DNA of 64,000 nucleotides from an uncultured Gammaproteobacteria bacterium. Lineage in GTDB: Bacteria > Patescibacteriota > Microgenomatia > UBA12405. The notes beneath the pieces are model-generated. The model was given only the letters and a program-made list of their open reading frames with translations, made no database searches and was not told where the DNA came from. The DNA lies in contig CAZCYZ010000002.1 in the NCBI GenBank assembly GCA_964503465.1, positions 6,995 through 70,994 on the forward strand, given 5' to 3'. Below, piece after piece: positions 14,567-50,579 of the stretch. The position numbers were made by a program, and so were the translations under genes. The stretch's first letter is position 1. Each line of letters starts with the position of its first letter.

Positions 14567-14833
14567 ATGTTTGCTAAAAAAGAAAGTAAAAGTTGGCTAG
14601 AGAAGAATGGGGCTATTATGGTTATTATTTTGATGTCGGTGACTATAGTGGCAGGTTTGGTATTGGTAAGTAGAAATCAAGATATTCGAGACGAGGCGGC
14701 GGGGAAAAAGCCCGGTAGTGGTATTCAACAAGGTGGTGTTGGTTCTGGTGGTGGGAAAAAACCTGGTAGTGATGTGCAACAGCAGGATAGTGTTCGGCAA
14801 ACCAAGAAACCACGAAGTAGCAACCAGCAGTAA
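14567..14833 (+). CDS. small membrane-anchored protein with post-TM SRNQDIRDEA motif and Gly/Gln-rich tail
   Basis: Single N-terminal TM; shares the Q[DE][TI]R motif with proteins at 42363 and 47278. Confidence 0.45.
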   Translation: MFAKKESKSWLEKNGAIMVIILMSVTIVAGLVLVSRNQDIRDEAAGKKPGSGIQQGGVGSGGGKKPGSDVQQQDSVRQTKKPRSSNQQ

Positions 14834-40207: not shown

Positions 40208-41572
40208 TTAAAATGGACTTAACTCAAGCAAAACAGCAGTGTTGGGATCAAAGTAAATATTGGTCATGAAACGGTTACTAACAACGTTAAGGCTTTGACT
40301 AGTGGTGGCACCAAGATATTTGGTGGTTTTGAGTTGATATTTACCCGGGTTAAGACCGTTGAAGGTGACAGGAACGGTTTCAACATGTTGACCGCGCGGG
40401 TCGTAGTTGACCAGTAAGGTTTGGATAACTCCATTATTGAGGGAAGATATTGAGGTAACGTGGGAACCATCACCACTACTACTTAACCGTTGACCGGCAA
40501 GTTGATTTAGGAATTGGAGGGCGTAGTAGCGGGGTTTGATTTTGGCACCGCTACTGGGGTGAGTAATCAAGCCCCAGCCGGAGGATTTGTCCGATCGGGG
40601 GGAAGGACCATCGACCGGTTCGAAAGTAAAAAGACGATGAATTTTGCCTGACAGTCGGGTAGAAAGAGAAATAAGATGAATACCAGAAAGGGAGTTGTCA
40701 TACCAGGGGTCGGGTTCGGGGTTGGGGCCAACTTCGGTGATTAAACGTTCAATGTCAAAATATTGAGGATAATCGTCAAGAATACTGTTGAGGTTTTCGA
40801 AATCGTTGTCGTAGTCATCGGGGTTTTTGGAATATTTGTGCCAGGAAATAAAATCAAGCCGGAGACGGTTAGTGGAAGCAGTTTTGAACAACGCTTTGAT
40901 CCAATTACTGTAGTAGGCGGTGATGGCTGGACCACCAATCTTGTAGGAGGTAGAACCGGCACCGTCAACAATGGCTTTGGCGGTTTGGGTATAAAGGGTG
41001 GAGTAGGAAGGGGATTTGCCGTAATGCCAACCACCAAACAAATCGGGTTCATTCCAAACCTCGTAGTAAATACCACTAATTTTCTTTTCGACTGAATAAC
41101 GGTAAGCGGTGGCTTTGACTAGTTGATACCACTGGTTCCAGTCGCTAGGTTCACCGGCGTTCTGGCCATTCTTGGCCATAGAGGCAGTGGTGTAGGAGAC
41201 AGATAGCATTGGTCGGGCGCCAGTGGCCAAGATACTATTAATTACAGTGTCAAGCTTGGAGAAATCGTAGTTTCCTGGTCCCTGATAAACCTGATAATAG
41301 TCAAAGAGATGGTCGACACGGATAAGTTGGGGCTGAAGAGCGCGAACTTGGTTGATAATTGGGCCAATCATGTCTAGAGGTTCTTCTCCGCCTTGGGACA
41401 GGTTTCGCCAAAGAGAGGAGGGAACTTTGCCTTGGATTGATTTGGTGTCGATACTAATGTTAGCTGGAGTGGGAGCGGCAGATTTGCGAAGATCAATGAC
41501 AGTTTTGACTCCAAAAATAAGGAGTGGCAGAGCCAGTAGCAATAGTATGGTCTTAATAGTTTTGTTGGCCAT
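40208..41572 (-). CDS. secreted glycoside hydrolase (GH39/GH5-like TIM-barrel family)
   Basis: Signal peptide MANKTIKTILLLLALPLLIFG; YYEVWNEPD (catalytic acid/base NEP motif). Confidence 0.55.
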   Translation of the reverse strand: MANKTIKTILLLLALPLLIFGVKTVIDLRKSAAPTPANISIDTKSIQGKVPSSLWRNLSQGGEEPLDMIGPIINQVRALQPQLIRVDHLFDYYQVYQGPGNYDFSKLDTVINSILATGARPMLSVSYTTASMAKNGQNAGEPSDWNQWYQLVKATAYRYSVEKKISGIYYEVWNEPDLFGGWHYGKSPSYSTLYTQTAKAIVDGAGSTSYKIGGPAITAYYSNWIKALFKTASTNRLRLDFISWHKYSKNPDDYDNDFENLNSILDDYPQYFDIERLITEVGPNPEPDPWYDNSLSGIHLISLSTRLSGKIHRLFTFEPVDGPSPRSDKSSGWGLITHPSSGAKIKPRYYALQFLNQLAGQRLSSSGDGSHVTSISSLNNGVIQTLLVNYDPRGQHVETVPVTFNGLNPGKYQLKTTKYLGATTSQSLNVVSNRFMTNIYFDPNTAVLLELSPF

Positions 41573-42362: not shown

Positions 42363-45300
42363 TTGAAAACAGGTAAACTTTTTTCAGACTATATTAAGGT
42401 TAAAAATAACAAAATGAATAAAATCTTTCGAAGGATAGGTAGTAATAGTGGTTTGGCTCAAATTCCCTTGGTAATTGGTTTGTTGATAATGGCGGTGGCA
42501 ATACCAGTAGCTACCAAATTAAGTCAGACGGAACAGGATACAAGAGATAAGGCGGCTGCTAAGGTATGTACTGTGGGAAATTTGGGAACTCGTTGTACTA
42601 ATAGTAGTGGTCAGTCTTGTCAGGAATATAGATTAGCGAATTGCGATATTTTATGTAATCAAAATTGTACTGGTGGGGGTGGAGGAAGTACTCCAAAGTT
42701 GCCAAAACCGACTAGTGGTGGCGGTGGAGGATCGACTTGTGAAGCTGGTCGTGAGAACGTTGGTTGCGGGAAAACCGGGCGAGTGAGTGGTGATTGTCGA
42801 CAAGCGGTGACATTTAACTGCTCAAGTAATCAGATGGGAGTTTTGGAAATTAGCAGGGATTGTACTTGTCGGGCGACTTGTGTTAATTCGTCTTCTTGTG
42901 CTGAACCAACCTCTCCACCCCGGGCAACTAATACACCAGAACCGTCATGTCAGGCGGGTCGTCAGGAGTTTTTGGGTGAATGTGGCAAGAAAGGTCGGGT
43001 GTCTACTATAAGGTTTGGATCGAGGTCGTATGAATGCGCCCAGCCGGTGGATTTTAATTGTCAGAGTGGACAAATTGGAGTTATTGAAATGGCTGGACCA
43101 AATTGTGTTTGTAGTGCCAGGTGTTTGAACGAATCTACTTGTGCCGCGGCCACGCCGACTACTAGACCAACTTCTCGACCAACTTCGACTTCGACTCCTC
43201 GGCCGACCACAGCTTGTGTTCGAAATGGATTAACGACAGGCTCAACGTCGAATTGTTGTAGTAAAAGTAGTGTTACTTATGCTGGTACTGGTGGGAGTCT
43301 TGTCACCTGTTGTGCTGCTAATGGAACAGTGGCGGAAAATAAGGCTGAATGTTGTAGTGGTAATGGGACAGTGATCACAGGTGGGCGGGACCAAGGTGCT
43401 TATACTTGTGGTGCTGCGCCAACCTCTACTCCTAGACCGACAGCTACTCCGACAGCGTCAAATTTGGGGAGTTGTGCCGCCACTTCAAGCCATCCAGTAA
43501 TGGCTAATGGTGAGACCTACTGTCAGAGTCCGTATCTTCTTGGTTCTCGAGCTTGGGCTTGTAACAATGGTACGGCAACAGTGAGAACAAACTATTTGAA
43601 TACCCGAAATTGTGACGGTAATGTCCCAACCGGGTTGCCAGTGGGTAACTGTGCTGCCACTGGTAATCATCCAGAGATGACTAATGGTGGATCCTATTGT
43701 CAGACCCCTTATTTGGCTGGTTCCAGAAGGTGGACTTGTAACAATGGGGATGCAACCATATCGCGTAATTTCTTGGCTACTAGAAATTGTGAAGAGACTG
43801 TTCCGACTGGAGCAGGAGGGAGTTGTACAGCAACTACCAATACTCCAGCTCTAGCTAATGGTGAGTCTTATTGTCAGAGTCCTTATTTGGCTGGTTCCAG
43901 AAGGTGGACTTGTAACAATGGAGTAGTATCGGTATCTCATGACTTTTTATTGACTAGAAATTGTAGTGGAACAGTGCCGACTGGATTACCGGCGGGTAAC
44001 TGTGCTGCGTCGCCAAATCATCCGGCCATGACTAACGGTCAGTCTTATTGTCAAAGTCCGTATCTTTTGGGATCAAGAGTTTGGACTTGTAGTAATGGAG
44101 ATGCAGTAATAACTAATAATTACGAGGCGACTCGAAATTGTAATGGAACTATTCCAACAGGATTACCGGCAGGTAACTGTCCGGCCACTTCAAGCCATCC
44201 AGTAATGGCTAATGGTGAGACCTACTGTCAGAGTCCGTATCTTCTTGGTTCTCGAGCTTGGGCTTGTAACAATGGTACGGCAACAGTGAGAACAAACTAT
44301 TTGAATACCCGAAATTGTGACGGTAATGTCCCAACCGGGTTGCCAGTGGGTAACTGTGCTGCCACTGGTAATCATCCAGAGATGACTAATGGTGGATCCT
44401 ATTGTCAGACCCCTTATTTGGCTGGTTCCAGAAGGTGGACTTGTAACAATGGGGATGCAACCATATCGCGTAATTTCTTGGCTACTAGAAATTGTGAAGA
44501 GACTGTTCCGACTGGAGCAGGAGGGAGTTGTACAGCAACTACCAATACTCCAGCTCTAGCTAATGGTGAGTCTTATTGTCAGAGTCCTTACAGATTAGGA
44601 TCAAGAAGATGGCATTGCGACAATGGGGTGGTATCGGTGGAGTCTATATATCTTCTTACTAGAGATTGTCGGGGAACCGTGCCAACTGGAACGACTCCGG
44701 GAAATTGTGCCGCGACTGACGAGACTCCGGTTTTGACTAACGGTCAGTCTTATTGTCAAAGTCCGTATAGGTTGGGGTCAAGAAGATGGGTTTGTAACAA
44801 TGGGGTGGTATCGGTAACAAATAATTATTTGACTACAGCCAATTGTGCCAGTTCATCACTGACTCCAATTCCTGGTTGTGTGATAGTCAATCCTTTAGGA
44901 GGGTGTCTATTAACACAAACAGCGATTGACAATCTAAACGAGTGTAGTGCGATAAGCTCTTTGCCTATTAGTAGCAGTTTGAGGGCGAGTGTATGTAGTG
45001 CTGTTGGTTTGAGGGCAGTGTTACCACTTCATTGTCAATGGTCAAATGGAAGTTGTGTACCTCGTTACAATGTCAATCCTTTTACTTGTAAAGTTGGAGG
45101 AGTGGCTGGTGTCTGTACTACTCGAAGTAACTGTAGTGGAACCTTTGACCAAACACAGGTTGTTGACTGTGGCGGTGCTCTAGGGCCTTTGTATACTGTT
45201 CTGGGTGTTGGCTGTTGTGTGACTGGAGGCACTGGAGGAATAGTAACTCCAATTCCGGGTTGTATTGTTGCTAATCCGGCTGGTGGTTGTTGGTTGACCC

Positions 45301-47294
45301 AGGCTGATTTGAATAATCTTAATGAGTGTAGTGCGATAAATTCTATTCCCTACATAGGGGCGAGTTTAAAGTCAAGTATCTGTAGTGCAGTGGGACTTAG
45401 GCCGGTGTTACCACTTCATTGTCAATGGTCAAATGGAAGTTGTGTACCTCGTTACAATGTCAATCCTTTTACTTGTAAAGTTGGAGGAGTGGCTGGTGTC
45501 TGTACTACTCGAAGTAACTGTAGTGGAACCTTTGACCAAACACAGGTTGTTGACTGTGGCGGTGCTCTAGGGCCTTTGTATACTGTTCTGGGTGTTGGCT
45601 GTTGTGTGACTGGAGGAGCTAGTCCTACCCCAACTGCTACCCCAACTGTTACGGTGACAGGGATTTGTGGTAGTGTTTGTGGAAGAGTCCCCTTACTAGT
45701 GAGGTCAGCTTGTGTTGCTGCGTGTACTAATATTGTTAATAATGGTTGTGCAGCGGGAAGAAATACCTTTATTGATGGGTGTATGACTACTTGTAATAGG
45801 TCGTCGGTGTTGAGGTTGGCGGGTGTTTGTTCGAATATATGTCGTCTGGCCGCCGATGAGATTTGTACTGATATACCAGGTACGGATTGTCCTAATCCGG
45901 GAACTACTACTTGTGAAGATGGTAGGGTACGGGCCTGTAAAGGCGATGGTGCTTGGGGCGAATGGATTACCTGTTTGTCGGGTCAGTGTAACACCGATGG
46001 AACAGAGTGTAAGTTCCCCCCAATATCGCCGTTGCCAACTAAGGGTGTTCGAGGAACACCGACAGGAACCAGGTGTCAAGATGGGGTAAGGGAGTTAAGA
46101 TGTGGAATTCAGGGTCGAGTAACTGGAACTGAATTTGGCTGTGAGCGTCCAGTAGATTTTAACTGTGCCGCAAATCAAATGGGTACGATTCGGGTTAGTC
46201 CTGATTGTCGATGTCAGCCGGTGTGTATGAATTCTTCGGCTTGTAGTTTAATTCCAACTGGTCAGCCGACAGGAACCAGGTGTCAAGATGGGGTAAGGGA
46301 GTTAAGATGTGGAATTCAGGGTCGAGTAACTGGAACTGAATTTGGCTGTGAGCGTCCAGTAGATTTTAACTGTGCCGCAAATCAAATGGGTACGATTCGG
46401 GTTAGTCCTGATTGTCGATGTCAGCCGGTGTGTATGAATTCTTCGGCTTGTAGTTTGGAGCCGACTCCGACTACTGGAAGGGGAATAACACCGGTAGTAA
46501 CAAGAGAGCCGACAACTCCTCCAGGACCAGGTTCATGTGACCAGAAATGTCCGACGAGTGACGGTAAAATCTTGAAAAACTGTACTCCGCCAGATAGTGA
46601 TGGCTCTAGTCAGGATAGCAATTGTGACCGTAGGGGTAGAGTTGAGCCCTGTGGTGGTAGCCAGTACTGCTGTGATGGAAGTAAGTGGAGTACTGACATG
46701 GCAGCTTGCGGAAATGTACCTACCACCCCTCCCGGTTGTGACCAAAAGTGCCCAACAAGTGATGGAAAAATCTTGAAAAACTGCACTCCACCAGACAGTG
46801 ATGGTACCAGTCAGGATAGCAATTGTGACCGTAGGGGTAGAGTAGAATCTTGTGGTGGTAGCCAGTACTGCTGTGATGGAAGTAAGTGGAGTACTGACAT
46901 GGCAGCTTGTGGGTCGGGTAAGTGTAAACGGTGCCCAGCAGACTTTAAGTGTTACACCGATGGGAGTGAGTATCGGTGGTTTGTGACAGGATATGCAATG
47001 GAGGGATTTGAGCTGGTGGCTTCACCGGATACCACTAGTTGTGGTGGTGTGACTCAACCGAGTTATATGGGCAAACAGAAGGGTGATGCCAATTGTGATG
47101 GCTTTGTCGATGGTTATGACTATTCGATTTGGAGAACGGAGTATGTGGATGTTAGCGGCGGTGAGCCATTAGTTCGAGATAATTGGGAGGCTGACTTCAC
47201 TGGTAACGACGGTCTGTGTGATGGAGTGGTGGATGGATACGATTACTCCTTGTGGAGAAATCAATATAAAGATTTAAATGGAGGAGGAAACTAA
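42363..47294 (+). CDS. giant Cys-rich repetitive surface protein (1643 aa) with N-terminal anchor and C-terminal dockerin-like repeat pair
   Basis: About ten 55-aa modules (GNCAAT..HP.M.NG.SYCQ.PYL.GSR.W.CNNG...TRNC); duplicated 70-80-aa modules; C-terminal DANCDGFVDGYDYSIW and DGLCDGVVDGYDYSLW. Confidence 0.7.
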   Translation: MKTGKLFSDYIKVKNNKMNKIFRRIGSNSGLAQIPLVIGLLIMAVAIPVATKLSQTEQDTRDKAAAKVCTVGNLGTRCTNSSGQSCQEYRLANCDILCNQNCTGGGGGSTPKLPKPTSGGGGGSTCEAGRENVGCGKTGRVSGDCRQAVTFNCSSNQMGVLEISRDCTCRATCVNSSSCAEPTSPPRATNTPEPSCQAGRQEFLGECGKKGRVSTIRFGSRSYECAQPVDFNCQSGQIGVIEMAGPNCVCSARCLNESTCAAATPTTRPTSRPTSTSTPRPTTACVRNGLTTGSTSNCCSKSSVTYAGTGGSLVTCCAANGTVAENKAECCSGNGTVITGGRDQGAYTCGAAPTSTPRPTATPTASNLGSCAATSSHPVMANGETYCQSPYLLGSRAWACNNGTATVRTNYLNTRNCDGNVPTGLPVGNCAATGNHPEMTNGGSYCQTPYLAGSRRWTCNNGDATISRNFLATRNCEETVPTGAGGSCTATTNTPALANGESYCQSPYLAGSRRWTCNNGVVSVSHDFLLTRNCSGTVPTGLPAGNCAASPNHPAMTNGQSYCQSPYLLGSRVWTCSNGDAVITNNYEATRNCNGTIPTGLPAGNCPATSSHPVMANGETYCQSPYLLGSRAWACNNGTATVRTNYLNTRNCDGNVPTGLPVGNCAATGNHPEMTNGGSYCQTPYLAGSRRWTCNNGDATISRNFLATRNCEETVPTGAGGSCTATTNTPALANGESYCQSPYRLGSRRWHCDNGVVSVESIYLLTRDCRGTVPTGTTPGNCAATDETPVLTNGQSYCQSPYRLGSRRWVCNNGVVSVTNNYLTTANCASSSLTPIPGCVIVNPLGGCLLTQTAIDNLNECSAISSLPISSSLRASVCSAVGLRAVLPLHCQWSNGSCVPRYNVNPFTCKVGGVAGVCTTRSNCSGTFDQTQVVDCGGALGPLYTVLGVGCCVTGGTGGIVTPIPGCIVANPAGGCWLTQADLNNLNECSAINSIPYIGASLKSSICSAVGLRPVLPLHCQWSNGSCVPRYNVNPFTCKVGGVAGVCTTRSNCSGTFDQTQVVDCGGALGPLYTVLGVGCCVTGGASPTPTATPTVTVTGICGSVCGRVPLLVRSACVAACTNIVNNGCAAGRNTFIDGCMTTCNRSSVLRLAGVCSNICRLAADEICTDIPGTDCPNPGTTTCEDGRVRACKGDGAWGEWITCLSGQCNTDGTECKFPPISPLPTKGVRGTPTGTRCQDGVRELRCGIQGRVTGTEFGCERPVDFNCAANQMGTIRVSPDCRCQPVCMNSSACSLIPTGQPTGTRCQDGVRELRCGIQGRVTGTEFGCERPVDFNCAANQMGTIRVSPDCRCQPVCMNSSACSLEPTPTTGRGITPVVTREPTTPPGPGSCDQKCPTSDGKILKNCTPPDSDGSSQDSNCDRRGRVEPCGGSQYCCDGSKWSTDMAACGNVPTTPPGCDQKCPTSDGKILKNCTPPDSDGTSQDSNCDRRGRVESCGGSQYCCDGSKWSTDMAACGSGKCKRCPADFKCYTDGSEYRWFVTGYAMEGFELVASPDTTSCGGVTQPSYMGKQKGDANCDGFVDGYDYSIWRTEYVDVSGGEPLVRDNWEADFTGNDGLCDGVVDGYDYSLWRNQYKDLNGGGN
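43470..44590. repeat. near-identical tandem direct repeat (~0.4 kb identical core within a 705-bp period) inside the giant gene
   Basis: Identical antisense ORFs reported at 43485..43670 and 44190..44375; DNA identical by eye from ~43470-43885 and 44175-44590. Confidence 0.7.
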
Positions 47295-48579
47295 AATGAC
47301 TATCCGAAGTAAACAGATGTCGGTTGCGTCACTAATAATACCTTTGTTGTTGGTGGCAGCCTTGATAGCTGGTTTAACCTTAGTTAAAACTAATCAAGAA
47401 ACACGAAGGGGGGCGTATTTTGCCAGCACCAAGATGTTGTTACAACCAGAGTCGTCGACAAAGAGGGTGGGGGAGGAAATACCTTTTGCTTTGTATGTGG
47501 AGACTCCTGCAAAAGTAGACTTTGTTAAGGCTAAAATCTGCTATACTAACTTGATAAGTCTGGATGGGAGTGATTTAGATTCAAAGATAGTTGTTAATCG
47601 AGAAGCTTTCGATGTGGCAGTTTTGACAAAGGTGGGGGAGTCAACGATTCCCGAACAGAAATGTTTAACAATGTCGATCAAATCAGAGAAGGCGGCGGAG
47701 AATTTAAAATCCGGATTGGTTCAGGTGGCCTTAATCAAGTTTAAGGCTTTGGCCAAAGGAAACGGTAATTTGGTTATTGACAAAGCCTCTTCACAAGTCG
47801 GCGGTCACAATGCTGGTAAAACCGATAAAAGTATCAAGATTGAAGAGGTGGCAGGAGCTAGCTTCACCATAACTGAAGGTGTAACTGGAGAGTGTGGTTG
47901 GTGTGGGCTTGATTGTATTCGTAAAGCCGCGGGCATGAATTGTATCGATGTAGCTCCGCCAGTTGGACAGAGATGTGTTGAAGTTGATGGTAACTGTGTG
48001 GCTCAACCAATTAGTACCGGAGGAGATTCGGTTTTGAACTACAAGATATTGTTTGGGGGTTTGCAATCAGATGCCAAGTGTGTGGCGAATTGGCCAGTAT
48101 CGATTACTGTTTTGGCAAATGGAGTATCCAAAACTTATAGCCATACTCCAGTCAGGGATGGTGATTCTTTTAGTGGTAGTTTAGTATTGACTGGATTTAC
48201 GGCTAGGGAAGGGGTGGCGGTTTTTATCAAAGGTTCGAAGCATCTTCAGATGAAGTATGGTAAGGACAATCAAGTTGGGGCGTATGCAAAGGCGGGGGGT
48301 GAAATTAGCCTGACCGATTCGGTATCTACCAGTCCATGGTATGTTTTTTCGGGATATCCACTGGTGGCAGGTGATGTTACCGGAGTCAACTCTGATGCCC
48401 AAGATGGATGGATTAATGGAGTTGACTTTTCTTATGTCAAGCAGCGTTCCTTGACACATGAAATGGTGGCAGAAGGAGCGTATCTTCAGGCCGATTTGGA
48501 TGGTAACTGTCAGGTTAACAGTAATGATGTTAACGTATTAAAGATTTCTCTCAATGAAAAACAGGGAGAGCTGTATTAA
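47278..48579 (+). CDS. membrane-anchored protein with cohesin-like N-terminal domain and C-terminal dockerin-like repeats
   Basis: N-terminal TM plus KTNQETRR motif; C-terminal DGWINGVDFSYV and DLDGNCQVNSNDVNVL. Confidence 0.5.
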   Translation: MEEETKMTIRSKQMSVASLIIPLLLVAALIAGLTLVKTNQETRRGAYFASTKMLLQPESSTKRVGEEIPFALYVETPAKVDFVKAKICYTNLISLDGSDLDSKIVVNREAFDVAVLTKVGESTIPEQKCLTMSIKSEKAAENLKSGLVQVALIKFKALAKGNGNLVIDKASSQVGGHNAGKTDKSIKIEEVAGASFTITEGVTGECGWCGLDCIRKAAGMNCIDVAPPVGQRCVEVDGNCVAQPISTGGDSVLNYKILFGGLQSDAKCVANWPVSITVLANGVSKTYSHTPVRDGDSFSGSLVLTGFTAREGVAVFIKGSKHLQMKYGKDNQVGAYAKAGGEISLTDSVSTSPWYVFSGYPLVAGDVTGVNSDAQDGWINGVDFSYVKQRSLTHEMVAEGAYLQADLDGNCQVNSNDVNVLKISLNEKQGELY

Positions 48580-48588
48580 GGAGAAAAT

Positions 48589-49176
48589 ATGAAAAAAGAA
48601 CAAATAATAAGGTTTTTAATTCCAGTAGTGGCAGTGTTGGTAATTGTTGAAAGTGTGGTTCTGGTTACTGGGGCTTTAAAGAGGAATAGAGAAGTGGTGC
48701 AGGATAAGCCGTTAGTTGCGGACGAAGAGTCGCGGTTGATCCAGATGGGTTTGGATGCGCCTAAATCATCGATAGCAGTGGGCGAGAAATTGCCGGTAAA
48801 CTTTAGATTGGTATCAACTAAGGATTTGGCGGTAGACGCCTTTGAGACGTATATTAAATACGATCCGACGGCTTTTGAAGTTTCCGGTTTAAGTTTTAAC
48901 AATGATTTACCAGCTCCAGCGATAGCAAAAATCAGTCGACAAAAAGGGATGATTATTGTTACTTATCTTGTTGATGAGGCGAGGGGTTATCAGTTGAAGT
49001 CGGGGGTTGAAGTGATGTTGGCAAGCTTTAATGTGACCGCTAAAAAAGCTGGTTCGTATGATTTTGAAATTACCACTAGCACTGGTGAGCAAGGCTCTGC
49101 TAGTATGGTAGTAGAGAATGCAACATCGAAGGTGATTCCATTTGATGGTAGCAGTCTAAAAGTTAACGTTTTTTAA
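48589..49176 (+). CDS. cohesin-domain protein (membrane-anchored)
   Basis: VGEKLPVNFRLVSTKDLAVDAFETYIKYDPTAFEV...ASFNVTAKKAGSYDFEI matches the cohesin beta-sandwich signature pattern. Confidence 0.5.
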   Translation: MKKEQIIRFLIPVVAVLVIVESVVLVTGALKRNREVVQDKPLVADEESRLIQMGLDAPKSSIAVGEKLPVNFRLVSTKDLAVDAFETYIKYDPTAFEVSGLSFNNDLPAPAIAKISRQKGMIIVTYLVDEARGYQLKSGVEVMLASFNVTAKKAGSYDFEITTSTGEQGSASMVVENATSKVIPFDGSSLKVNVF

Positions 49177-49185
49177 ATAAAGATA

Positions 49186-49887
49186 ATGAAAAAAACTGCC
49201 CTTAGTTTGGTAATGACCTTGGCCTTGATGGGGGCAGGGGTTAAAGGAGTAATGGCCGGGCCCCATCTGACTTTATCTCCTTCGGCGGGGAATTATACGG
49301 TTGGGTCTGAGTTTACGGTGACAATTGGGGTGGATTCGGGAACAGAGAAAACGGCGGCGATTGATATTTGGGCGAATTTTGACTTGTCCAAGCTGGAGGT
49401 GGTGTCGATTACAAAGACTGCCCCTCCGGATCCAAATAATGACGATTTTCCTTTTAGTTTGGGCCAGAACATTAAGAACAGTGAAGGTAAATTTGATGTA
49501 AGTTGCACCTCAAGTAACATGAGTGGATTGGAAACCGTGGCAATTAAGAGGGACTTGGTGGCGGTAGTGTTTAAAGCTAAGGCTGAAGGAGTGGCATCGC
49601 TTAATTTTAGTTGCTCATCAGGCTCAAGTATTGATACTAATATTTTTAATGCCAGTGCGGTAGATGTAATTGAGTGTTCGAGTAATCAAAGCGGATCTTA
49701 CACTATTACGGCTGCTTCAAGTGGTGGTACGAGCGAGCCAACGGCGACACCAACACCAACGACAGCGGCAACAACAACGACTACAAGTTCTAGCTTGCCA
49801 CAGACTGGGGTGATTGAAAATACGGTTGGATTAGTGGTTTTTGGTTTGATGTCGGTGCTTGGAGCGGCAGTTTTACGTTGGCTATGA
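49186..49887 (+). CDS. cohesin-like surface protein with LPQTG sortase sorting signal
   Basis: Signal peptide; cohesin-like core; Thr-rich linker; LPQTG (49795-49809) followed by hydrophobic segment and RWL tail. Confidence 0.6.
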   Translation: MKKTALSLVMTLALMGAGVKGVMAGPHLTLSPSAGNYTVGSEFTVTIGVDSGTEKTAAIDIWANFDLSKLEVVSITKTAPPDPNNDDFPFSLGQNIKNSEGKFDVSCTSSNMSGLETVAIKRDLVAVVFKAKAEGVASLNFSCSSGSSIDTNIFNASAVDVIECSSNQSGSYTITAASSGGTSEPTATPTPTTAATTTTTSSSLPQTGVIENTVGLVVFGLMSVLGAAVLRWL

Positions 49888-50579
49888 GTAGGGGAGCGAT
49901 TAACATTAAGACAATATTGATTTTGGTTATTTTGGTGTTGGTGGGAGTGTTGAGTGTTTTGGGTATCAATACTGCCAAAACATTGATTGGAAGTGCGGCG
50001 GCTGGAGTTGAGCCCAAAAATGTAATTGCTAAGCCGGATATGGTGACTGATAGTGGCCGGGAAGAGTTTACGGCGAAAGTTGAGTGGACTTCGGAAAAAC
50101 CAGCGATGGGAATTGTCGAGTATGGGACGACACCGGCCAGTTTGCTATTACGGGCAGCAGAATCGGAACAGTCAACCAGCCATTCGGTTAAATTGTCACC
50201 CTTAAAATCAAATACTAGTTATTATTTTCGAATTAAAATAGGGGAAGAAGTCTTTGATAACAACGGTATTCCCTATTCTTTTAAAACTAAGGCGACAACC
50301 GCGAGTGGGAGCAGTCAGCAACAACCAACAGTGGCGCCAACTAAGCCAGTAGGAGCGGCACCAACGGTGGTTAATGATAAAGGTTGCAATCGTGCGACTG
50401 ACTACAATAAGGATGGGGTGATCAATAGCCTTGACTATGTCGTTTGTATGGGTGGCCAAAAGAGTGGTACTCCGTCGGCTAGTAGTAGTGCTAGTAGTTG
50501 CAAGGCAGGAGTGGATTTTGATGGCAATGGGGTGGCGAATAGTCTTGATATGATCAAGTGTTTACAAAACAAGAAGTAA
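49878..50579 (+). CDS. FN3-like domain protein with C-terminal dockerin (two repeats)
   Basis: VEWTSEKPAMGIVEYGTTP...TSYYFRIK (FN3-like); DYNKDGVINSLDYVV and DFDGNGVANSLDMI dockerin repeats. Confidence 0.6.
   Translation: MAMSRGAINIKTILILVILVLVGVLSVLGINTAKTLIGSAAAGVEPKNVIAKPDMVTDSGREEFTAKVEWTSEKPAMGIVEYGTTPASLLLRAAESEQSTSHSVKLSPLKSNTSYYFRIKIGEEVFDNNGIPYSFKTKATTASGSSQQQPTVAPTKPVGAAPTVVNDKGCNRATDYNKDGVINSLDYVVCMGGQKSGTPSASSSASSCKAGVDFDGNGVANSLDMIKCLQNKK

Follow-up and report, generated by a model that had tools for sequence, protein, structure and literature searches.

A probable non-cellulosomal cohesin-dockerin scaffold for protein display on the Shapirobacteria cell surface

We analysed a 64,000-nucleotide stretch of contig CAZCYZ010000002.1 (positions 6,995 to 70,994, assembly GCA_964503465.1; hereafter the window), in which five genes packed on the + strand at 42.4-50.6 kb, with intergenic gaps of -4 to +9 nt, encode a giant Cys-rich protein (the cargo) followed by four proteins, g1 to g4. 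We propose that they probably form a non-cellulosomal cohesin-dockerin scaffold that holds proteins on the cell surface of Shapirobacteria and is encoded by one packed gene string. An earlier reading of this DNA (the original prediction) had claimed four consecutive genes in a scaffold-plus-cargo arrangement. All four open reading frames (ORFs) were recovered where they had been placed (g1 47278-48579, g2 48589-49176, g3 49186-49887 and g4 49878-50579), and the string holds three cohesins (g1, g2 and g3) and three dockerins (giant protein, g1 and g4). In the public gene calls for the same DNA, g1 starts at 47296 (427 aa) and g4 at 49884 (231 aa), this last start overlapping the end of g3 by ATGA.

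About 30 genomes of Shapirobacteria species share the cluster in synteny, 30 loci having been recovered when species representatives were scanned. Wherever contigs were long enough, the order was rseP and a GH39-like gene on the - strand, then a variable Cys-rich protein, g1, g2, g3, g4, rpsU, yqeY, ybeY and dnaX. Recurrence of one module order in about 30 species means that the arrangement of modules is not a matter of chance. A hidden Markov model (HMM) was built for each module and tabulated across loci: the g2 cohesin, the g3 cohesin, the g1-type X-dockerin and the g4 FN3-dockerin were present wherever a Shapirobacteria contig covers their position. Homologues of g3 and g1 were found almost only in metagenome-assembled genomes named Candidatus Shapirobacteria, Microgenomates or Patescibacteria, in agreement with the predicted assignment of the organism to the candidate phyla radiation (CPR); most are annotated as 'hypothetical', a few as 'cohesin domain-containing' or 'LPXTG-motif cell wall-anchored protein'. 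A scan for promoters and terminators returned counts at chance level and was uninformative on transcription units.

The g3 gene had been described as encoding a secreted cohesin with a Thr-rich stalk and an LPQTG sorting signal, and profile matches and coordinates agree with that description (Table 1). Pfam gathering scores (GA) are 24.1 bits for Cohesin (PF00963), 22.9 bits for Dockerin_1 (PF00404), 20 for Gram_pos_anchor (PF00746) and 30 for Pur_ac_phosph_N, and the NCBIfam cut-off for TIGR01167 is 15.9; g3 scored 34.0 bits with Cohesin, 23.3 bits with Gram_pos_anchor and 17.7 with TIGR01167. Its AlphaFold2 model (pLDDT 84.7) is composed of a signal helix (residues 2-22), a beta-sandwich, a disordered Thr-rich stalk and a C-terminal helix (residues 210-232). 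The beta-sandwich has the predicted jelly-roll fold of a cohesin, and the top 50 matches of the model in the Protein Data Bank (PDB) were all cohesins, the best being of the compact type I (template modelling (TM) score 0.79 to 5NRM_A). In the LPxTG motif of 27 homologues, L, P and G never vary and T hardly does; behind the motif come a hydrophobic stretch and a tail of Arg/Lys. Across the loci, all g3 copies whose C-terminus is complete have the sorting signal, and no LPXTG-type signal was found in any other ORF of these loci sequences. A role of g3 as a subunit of a sortase-assembled pilus was rejected by inspection, only a single cohesin fold and the sorting signal being seen (no pilin-motif search was made).

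No sortase was detected in the window by a six-frame scan for the TLxTC motif, in 35 related loci, where every ORF was checked for the motif and compared with S. aureus SrtA by phmmer, or in the ~4.7 kb past the 3' end of the window among the Pfam-annotated gene calls of locus L036. The sortase family PF04203 is reported in more than half of CPR genomes and as 'near ubiquitous in Microgenomates', in a data set that includes Shapirobacteria (PMC6744442), and a complete related Microgenomates genome encodes a sortase (PMC7143001). Because the sorting signal is invariant and sortases are reported to be nearly ubiquitous in Microgenomates, anchoring of g3 by a sortase is likely.

The g1 protein had been predicted to be anchored by a transmembrane segment and to carry a cohesin-like domain and a C-terminal dockerin-like pair; alignment to the g3 cohesin, Dockerin_1 matches of orthologues and the structural model agree. 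Pfam Cohesin gave no match to g1 in the window and matched 1 of 24 orthologues; the N-terminal domain (residues 46-203) aligned with the g3 cohesin profile (hhalign 97.6%, E 3e-12). Dockerin_1 scored 17.8 bits in the window, below GA, and 15 of the 24 orthologues match it (best 1.8e-8). The first calcium loop carries an insertion of ~6-7 aa in the window and is canonical in some orthologues, the second has an invariant Cys411 at loop position 6, and the C-terminus has a conserved KQG(E/Q)LY. In the AlphaFold model of g1, made with 60 homologues (mean pLDDT 89.7), the dockerin helices lie at residues 375-387 and 409-426. The best Foldseek matches of this model in the PDB were the CohI9-X-DocII chains of C. 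thermocellum CipA, 3KCP_A (E 9e-12) and 4FL4_I (4e-11), over ~390 columns; single cohesins came next (target TM 0.73-0.75), and the CipA X-dockerin dyad was also among the best matches. As in such dyads, an Ig-like X module lies directly N-terminal to the dockerin and is predicted to pack with it as one unit. As modelled, g1 is composed of a cohesin, a Cys-rich linker, an X module and a dockerin, which is the layout of an adaptor scaffoldin. Cys268 in the X module and Cys411 in the dockerin are invariant in the 24 orthologues and in the 60 sequences. They are the only cysteines left after the cohesin pair and the six linker cysteines are accounted for, which suggests that a disulfide probably staples the X module to the dockerin.

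The g2 protein had been described as a membrane-anchored cohesin, and its Pfam Cohesin match (31.5 bits, above GA; 19 of 29 orthologues match) and N-terminal transmembrane segment agree with this. In that transmembrane helix, at residues 21-22 (48649-48654), Ser22 is invariant and Glu21 nearly invariant across the 29 orthologues; among the conserved neighbours of the cluster is rseP, which encodes a site-2 protease.

The g4 protein is FN3-like with two canonical dockerin repeats, as claimed, the loops DYNKDGVINSLD and DFDGNGVANSLD lying at the positions given for them. Pur_ac_phosph_N, which has an FN3-like fold, scored 30.6 bits and Dockerin_1 23.1 bits in the window; among 32 orthologues these families matched 32 and 26, respectively, and fn3 matched 15. 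The best PDB sequence matches of the g4 family profile were dockerins (2Y3N_B, 4FL4_A and 1OHZ_B, E 2e-7 to 1e-5). Each F-hand repeat is bracketed by a conserved pair of cysteines, C170-C190 (50385-50447) and C208-C228 (50499-50561).

The last 85 residues of the giant protein scored 17.4 bits with Dockerin_1, below GA; among the cargo tails from orthologues, 4 of 10 were above GA (23.6-28.3 bits) and 7 of 10 matched Dockerin_1 at E <0.03. Tandem F-hands were sought with the dockerin calcium-loop pattern D-x-[DN]-x-[DN]-G-x-x-[DN]-x-x-D, each loop being followed by a helix. They were found in g4 (both loops), in the giant protein (DANCDGFVDGYD and a variant second loop) and in g1 (second loop DLDGNCQVNSND, first loop with the insertion). 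Of the families expected from the original prediction, Cohesin was found in g2 and g3, and an FN3-like domain with a marginal Dockerin_1 in g4, but the dockerins of g1 and of the giant protein fell below GA.

Table 1. Positions of the genes and modules of the cluster in the window (residue numbers of the g1 cohesin refer to the 433-aa ORF).
Feature	Position	Strand	Description
Cargo gene	42414..47294	+	Giant secreted Cys-rich protein; variable between species
Cargo N-terminal leader	42450..42554	+	GLAQIPLVIGLLIMAVAIPVATKLSQTEQDTRDKA; conserved G[LF]A[QE]IP, hydrophobic helix, then QxNQDxRxxA
Cargo dockerin-like pair ('IWR type')	47055..47291	+	DANCDGFVDGYDYSIW 47085-47132; NDGLCDGVVDGYDYSLW 47205-47255; module HMM E 9e-31
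g1	47296..48579	+	Transmembrane/signal segment, cohesin, Cys-rich linker, X module, dockerin
g1 cohesin module	47407..47880	+	Residues 44-201
g1 Cys-rich linker	47887..48000	+	Six Cys; variable length, expanded in some species
g1 X-like beta-sandwich module	48007..48351	+	Holds invariant Cys268
g1 dockerin	48352..48576	+	Loop 1 GDVTG..QDGWINGVD 48370-48438, with insertion; loop 2 DLDGNCQVNSND within 48493-48540
g2	48589..49176	+	Transmembrane segment 48604-48678; single cohesin 48748-49173
g3	49186..49887	+	Signal peptide 49186-49257; cohesin 49258-49719; Thr/Pro stalk 49729-49794
g3 C-terminal signal	49795-49809	+	LPQTG (residues 204-208); hydrophobic segment and Arg tail 49810-49884
g4	49884..50579	+	Transmembrane/signal segment 49905-49967; FN3-like 50010-50297; Pro/Thr linker; dockerin 50379-50576
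g4 F-hand calcium loops	50400-50435; 50514-50549	+	DYNKDGVINSLD; DFDGNGVANSLD

Which dockerin goes with which cohesin was addressed by co-occurrence and by co-evolution. The g1 cohesin and the upstream IWR-type dockerin were both present in 19 of 19 genomes and both absent in 3 of 3 (L011, L014 and L017), L002 being ambiguous. In L011, L014 and L017 the Cys-rich N-terminus is fused directly to a g1-type X-dockerin. This co-presence and co-absence is as expected for a g1 cohesin that binds the cargo dockerin and an X-dockerin that plugs into the conserved anchor. Pairwise-distance matrices were then correlated (mirror-tree) over 19 related species, with 20,000 permutations. The correlation was r 0.64 for the g3 cohesin with the g1 dockerin and r 0.57 for the g1 cohesin with the IWR-type dockerin; 0 of 20,000 permutations reached either value, and both were unchanged after control for YqeY and S21 distances. 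All other cohesin-dockerin pairs from different proteins gave r <=0.28 (the g3 cohesin with the IWR-type dockerin 0.28, nominal p 0.018; the rest not significant), and the same-protein pair of g1 cohesin and g1 dockerin gave r 0.40. The g2 cohesin correlated with the g1 dockerin at r 0.21 only, although g2 sits between g1 and g3; because this intervening cohesin correlates poorly, linkage alone does not explain the g1-g3 signal. These comparisons make it likely that the g3 cohesin binds the g1 X-dockerin and that the g1 cohesin binds the cargo dockerin. The original prediction had the wall cohesin displaying the giant protein: the giant protein does end in a dockerin-like tail, but its direct insertion into g3 is improbable, co-occurrence and co-evolution both pointing to g1 as an adaptor.

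It would follow for the proposed scaffold that g3 is exported and that a sortase cleaves its LPQTG motif, which is observed, and links it to peptidoglycan, a step presumed from the motif. The single type-I-like cohesin of g3 would then stand on a stalk of ~25 Thr/Pro-rich residues and accept the g1 X-dockerin, whose fold is predicted and whose partner is suggested by co-evolution and analogy. The g1 cohesin, in turn, would hold the C-terminal dockerin of the upstream Cys-rich cargo, as co-occurrence and co-evolution suggest. The membrane-anchored cohesin g2 and the FN3 protein g4 with its Cys-bracketed dockerin are invariant members of the cluster outside the two assigned pairings. The likely purpose of such an assembly is modular, swappable display of a fast-diversifying extracellular protein.

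Several observations weigh against this scaffold. The three genomes that lack both the g1 cohesin and the IWR-type dockerin possibly represent only two evolutionary events, and the mirror-tree signal is correlative and comes from 19 related species. The g4 dockerin correlates with no cohesin (r <=0.19). The Dockerin_1 scores of g1 (17.8 bits) and of the giant protein (17.4 bits) are below GA, and that of g4 exceeds it by only 0.2 bits. The giant protein matches no Pfam domain at full length. No sortase was found in ~69 kb of this genome and ~500 kb of related loci. Finally, the topology would be other than that of the model if g1 and g4 keep their N-terminal helices uncleaved.

Some of these points would be expected if the modules did not bind each other at all, the proteins being independent surface proteins that share common beta-sandwich and EF/F-hand modules, in the manner of many 'orphan' dockerins and cohesins found in genomes. 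Dockerin scores at or under the Pfam threshold, g4 orthologues with one F-hand repeat and a g4 dockerin that co-evolves with no cohesin are all compatible with this. We nevertheless consider it quite improbable, as three cohesins and three dockerins lie in one conserved gene string, g1 repeats the cohesin-X-dockerin layout of a real scaffoldin, and two pairs show specific co-occurrence and distance correlation. A single F-hand repeat was observed in g4 of L002, L009, L015, L017, L034 and L035, and the first calcium loop is deleted in L011 and L014; these half-dockerins may provide a natural test of single-site binding.

The long N-terminal hydrophobic helices of g1, g2 and g4 may stay in the membrane, and the modules could then serve a structural envelope complex in which membrane-held g1, g2 and g4 are tied to wall-linked g3, similar to an S-layer or a wall tether, with no adhesin display. 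The position of the cluster among housekeeping genes, its strict synteny and a relative (P0173, below) that has both cohesin and SLH domains and is matched by the X-dockerin half of g1 are consistent with such a complex. It accounts neither for the hypervariable giant cargo slot nor for the rapid evolution of the cohesins in g1 and g2 (mean distances ~2x that of YqeY), and we judge it unlikely.

P0173 is a 641-aa protein that matches the g1 query over only ~44% of its length, like the matches limited to the X-dockerin half, and carries Pfam Cohesin and SLH (PF00395). The SLH domain is a hint that some lineages may attach to the wall by another, non-covalent route.

The nature of the cargo bears on what the proposed scaffold would display. 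The cargo ORF (1643 aa, 42363-47294) opens at TTG 42363, with a likely ATG start at 42414; it encodes 140 Cys (8.5%) and four families of internal Cys-rich repeats. Between species, the protein at this position ranges from about 360 to 1643 aa. Searching for homologues of the giant protein by its C-terminal 131 aa gave only 3 fragments and was uninformative on other cargo. No convincing enzyme domain was found in 23 cargo-position proteins, the sole enzyme-family match being GH123_cat (E 3.6e-4). The GH39-like gene next to the cluster (40208-41572, - strand) encodes a secreted glycoside hydrolase (Glyco_hydro_39, 6e-21) and is a conserved neighbour; the protein is 58-66% identical across loci and has a signal or transmembrane segment, and a dockerin was looked for in it and none was found.

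The presence of this secreted hydrolase gene is a feature that would favour a true minimal cellulosome recruiting glycoside hydrolases for polysaccharide breakdown. We rejected that reading, which is extremely unlikely: the GH39-like protein lacks a dockerin and the 23 cargo-position proteins lack a convincing enzyme domain. No multi-cohesin primary scaffoldin was seen in the loci, since each protein has one cohesin at most in nearly all species (two in L023), and no carbohydrate-binding module (CBM) matched g1 to g4 or their orthologues. The term 'cellulosome-style' in the original prediction therefore holds for the architecture only.

The original prediction had also viewed the cluster as the host-attachment apparatus of an episymbiotic CPR cell, in which the wall cohesin directly displays the giant Cys-rich protein as an adhesin. 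Like many adhesins, the cargo is a repetitive, disulfide-rich extracellular protein that is hypervariable from species to species, and the scaffold genes are strictly conserved. Furthermore, a dockerin-domain envelope protein of Saccharibacteria is essential in co-culture and is suggested to target host glycans (PMC10633639). No adhesin domain matched the cargo, however, its variability could equally reflect evasion of phages or predators, and co-occurrence and co-evolution favour indirect display through g1 over binding to g3. In this direct form host attachment is a doubtful proposal, and what we retain is that the Cys-rich protein displayed by the proposed scaffold plausibly mediates adhesion to a host or to some surface. 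To our knowledge, apart from the type IV pili of Saccharibacteria, little has been established on how uncultivated CPR bacteria attach to partners or surfaces.

A more specific version, which we put forward tentatively, is a plug-and-socket system for interchangeable host recognition. A fixed sortase-anchored cohesin and a cohesin-X-dockerin adaptor would receive swapped or remodelled dockerin-tagged cargo, with the adaptor bypassed in some lineages by fusion of cargo to the X-dockerin; this might apply to Shapirobacteria and perhaps to other Microgenomates. If it were true, the specificity for hosts or surfaces could change without altering the anchoring machinery.

Compared with known systems, the closest parallel to the anchor is ScaE of R. 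flavefaciens, a sortase-anchored cohesin that receives the X-dockerins of ScaB and CttA (Rincon et al., 2005, as cited in PMC12484212). Both ScaE and g3 have a single cohesin on an LPXTG-ended stalk; it is fixed to the wall by sortase and receives the X-dockerin of a second scaffold protein, both of which are predicted for g3. The g1 and g3 models both have the cohesin of ScaE (2ZF9) among their structural matches. In contrast, g3 is nearer to compact type I cohesins (TM 0.79, 5NRM_A) than to the type III cohesin of ScaE (TM ~0.6), and the present cluster has non-enzymatic cargo, no multi-cohesin primary scaffoldin and a CPR host with a genome of ~1 Mb.

The adaptor resembles the C-terminal CohI9-X-DocII part of CipA bound to SdbA in C. 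thermocellum (PDB 3KCP, 4FL4 and 5G5D), which has the same order of cohesin, X module and dockerin as g1. CipA chains are the best full-length structural matches of g1, and in both cases the X-dockerin enters an anchoring cohesin (presumed here). However, g1 has one cohesin and not nine, no CBM, an N-terminal transmembrane or signal segment, a Cys-rich linker and the invariant C268/C411 pair, and its anchor is predicted to be of the sortase type and not SLH.

Cohesins that serve outside plant cell-wall degradation are known from Archaeoglobus fulgidus (2XDH) and from toxins and glycosidases of Clostridium perfringens (2VO8, 2W1N and 2O4E), and 2XDH and 2VO8 were among the structural matches. 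They are scattered single modules or link enzyme to enzyme, whereas the present one is a complete, conserved anchor-adaptor-cargo cluster. Non-cellulosomal cohesin-dockerin modules were reportedly surveyed by Peer and colleagues in 2009.

Within the CPR, the nearest comparison is SEML1_0315, an essential dockerin-domain envelope protein of the Saccharibacterium Southlakia epibionticum with a suggested role in host interaction (PMC10633639). This likeness is one of description. The organism belongs to another CPR class, and the accessible part of that publication describes no partner cohesin or cluster.

The claim that the system is undescribed in this lineage is consistent with our finding no publication on such a CPR cluster in a literature coverage that mostly leaves out subscription journals. 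The cluster is probably a previously undescribed form of non-cellulosomal cohesin-dockerin surface display, modules outside cellulosomes being already known. It would carry the anchor-adaptor-cargo logic of cellulosomes over into a minimal-genome lineage, in a role without enzymes, and gives a concrete, testable model, with small expressible modules, an LPQTG peptide for sortase and a hypervariable cargo as candidate for specificity. The new dockerin variants, with Cys-bracketed repeats, a probable X-dockerin disulfide or a single repeat, are of possible interest to protein engineers.

Further observations concern the giant gene itself. A unit of ~58 aa is repeated nine times at residues ~369-830 of the protein. 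Two antisense ORFs, 43485-43670 and 44190-44375, have identical translations because near-perfect repeats lie 705 bp apart inside the giant gene. The number of repeats may be unreliable in a short-read assembly.

The cargo leaders (42414-42530, and the upstream genes of L004-L033) are highly conserved, with basic residues, G[LFI]A[QE]IP and a hydrophobic helix of ~20 residues. They resemble a type IV prepilin (class III) signal, but with Q/E at +3 in place of E at +5; the giant protein has no NCBIfam match at all, hence none to the prepilin-type N-terminal model. A hydrophobic helix followed by LVxxNQ[DE]xR..A recurs at the N-terminus of the giant protein (42450-42554), of g1 (47329-47415) and in loci L002-L033. 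A small ORF rich in Gly and Lys (14567-14830, MFAKK...LVLVSRNQDIRDEAAG) has the same signal, and the GH39-like protein a weak form of it; the signal may be a lineage-specific processing or sorting site.

The + strand of the whole window has an extreme excess of G over C, with a GC skew of +0.16 to +0.55 in every 2-kb bin, in agreement with the strand disparity and monotonic cumulative skew published for Microgenomates genomes of the order UBA1400 (PMC7143001). Elsewhere in the window, a TrwB/TraG-like type IV coupling protein is encoded at 26297-28468 (- strand) and an M23 peptidase-domain protein at 33392-34831; the stretch also holds two ORFs without a Pfam match. GC content is raised to 0.52-0.535 at 30-34 kb, against ~0.44 elsewhere in the window, and the region 26297-34831 may be a secretion- or conjugation-related island.

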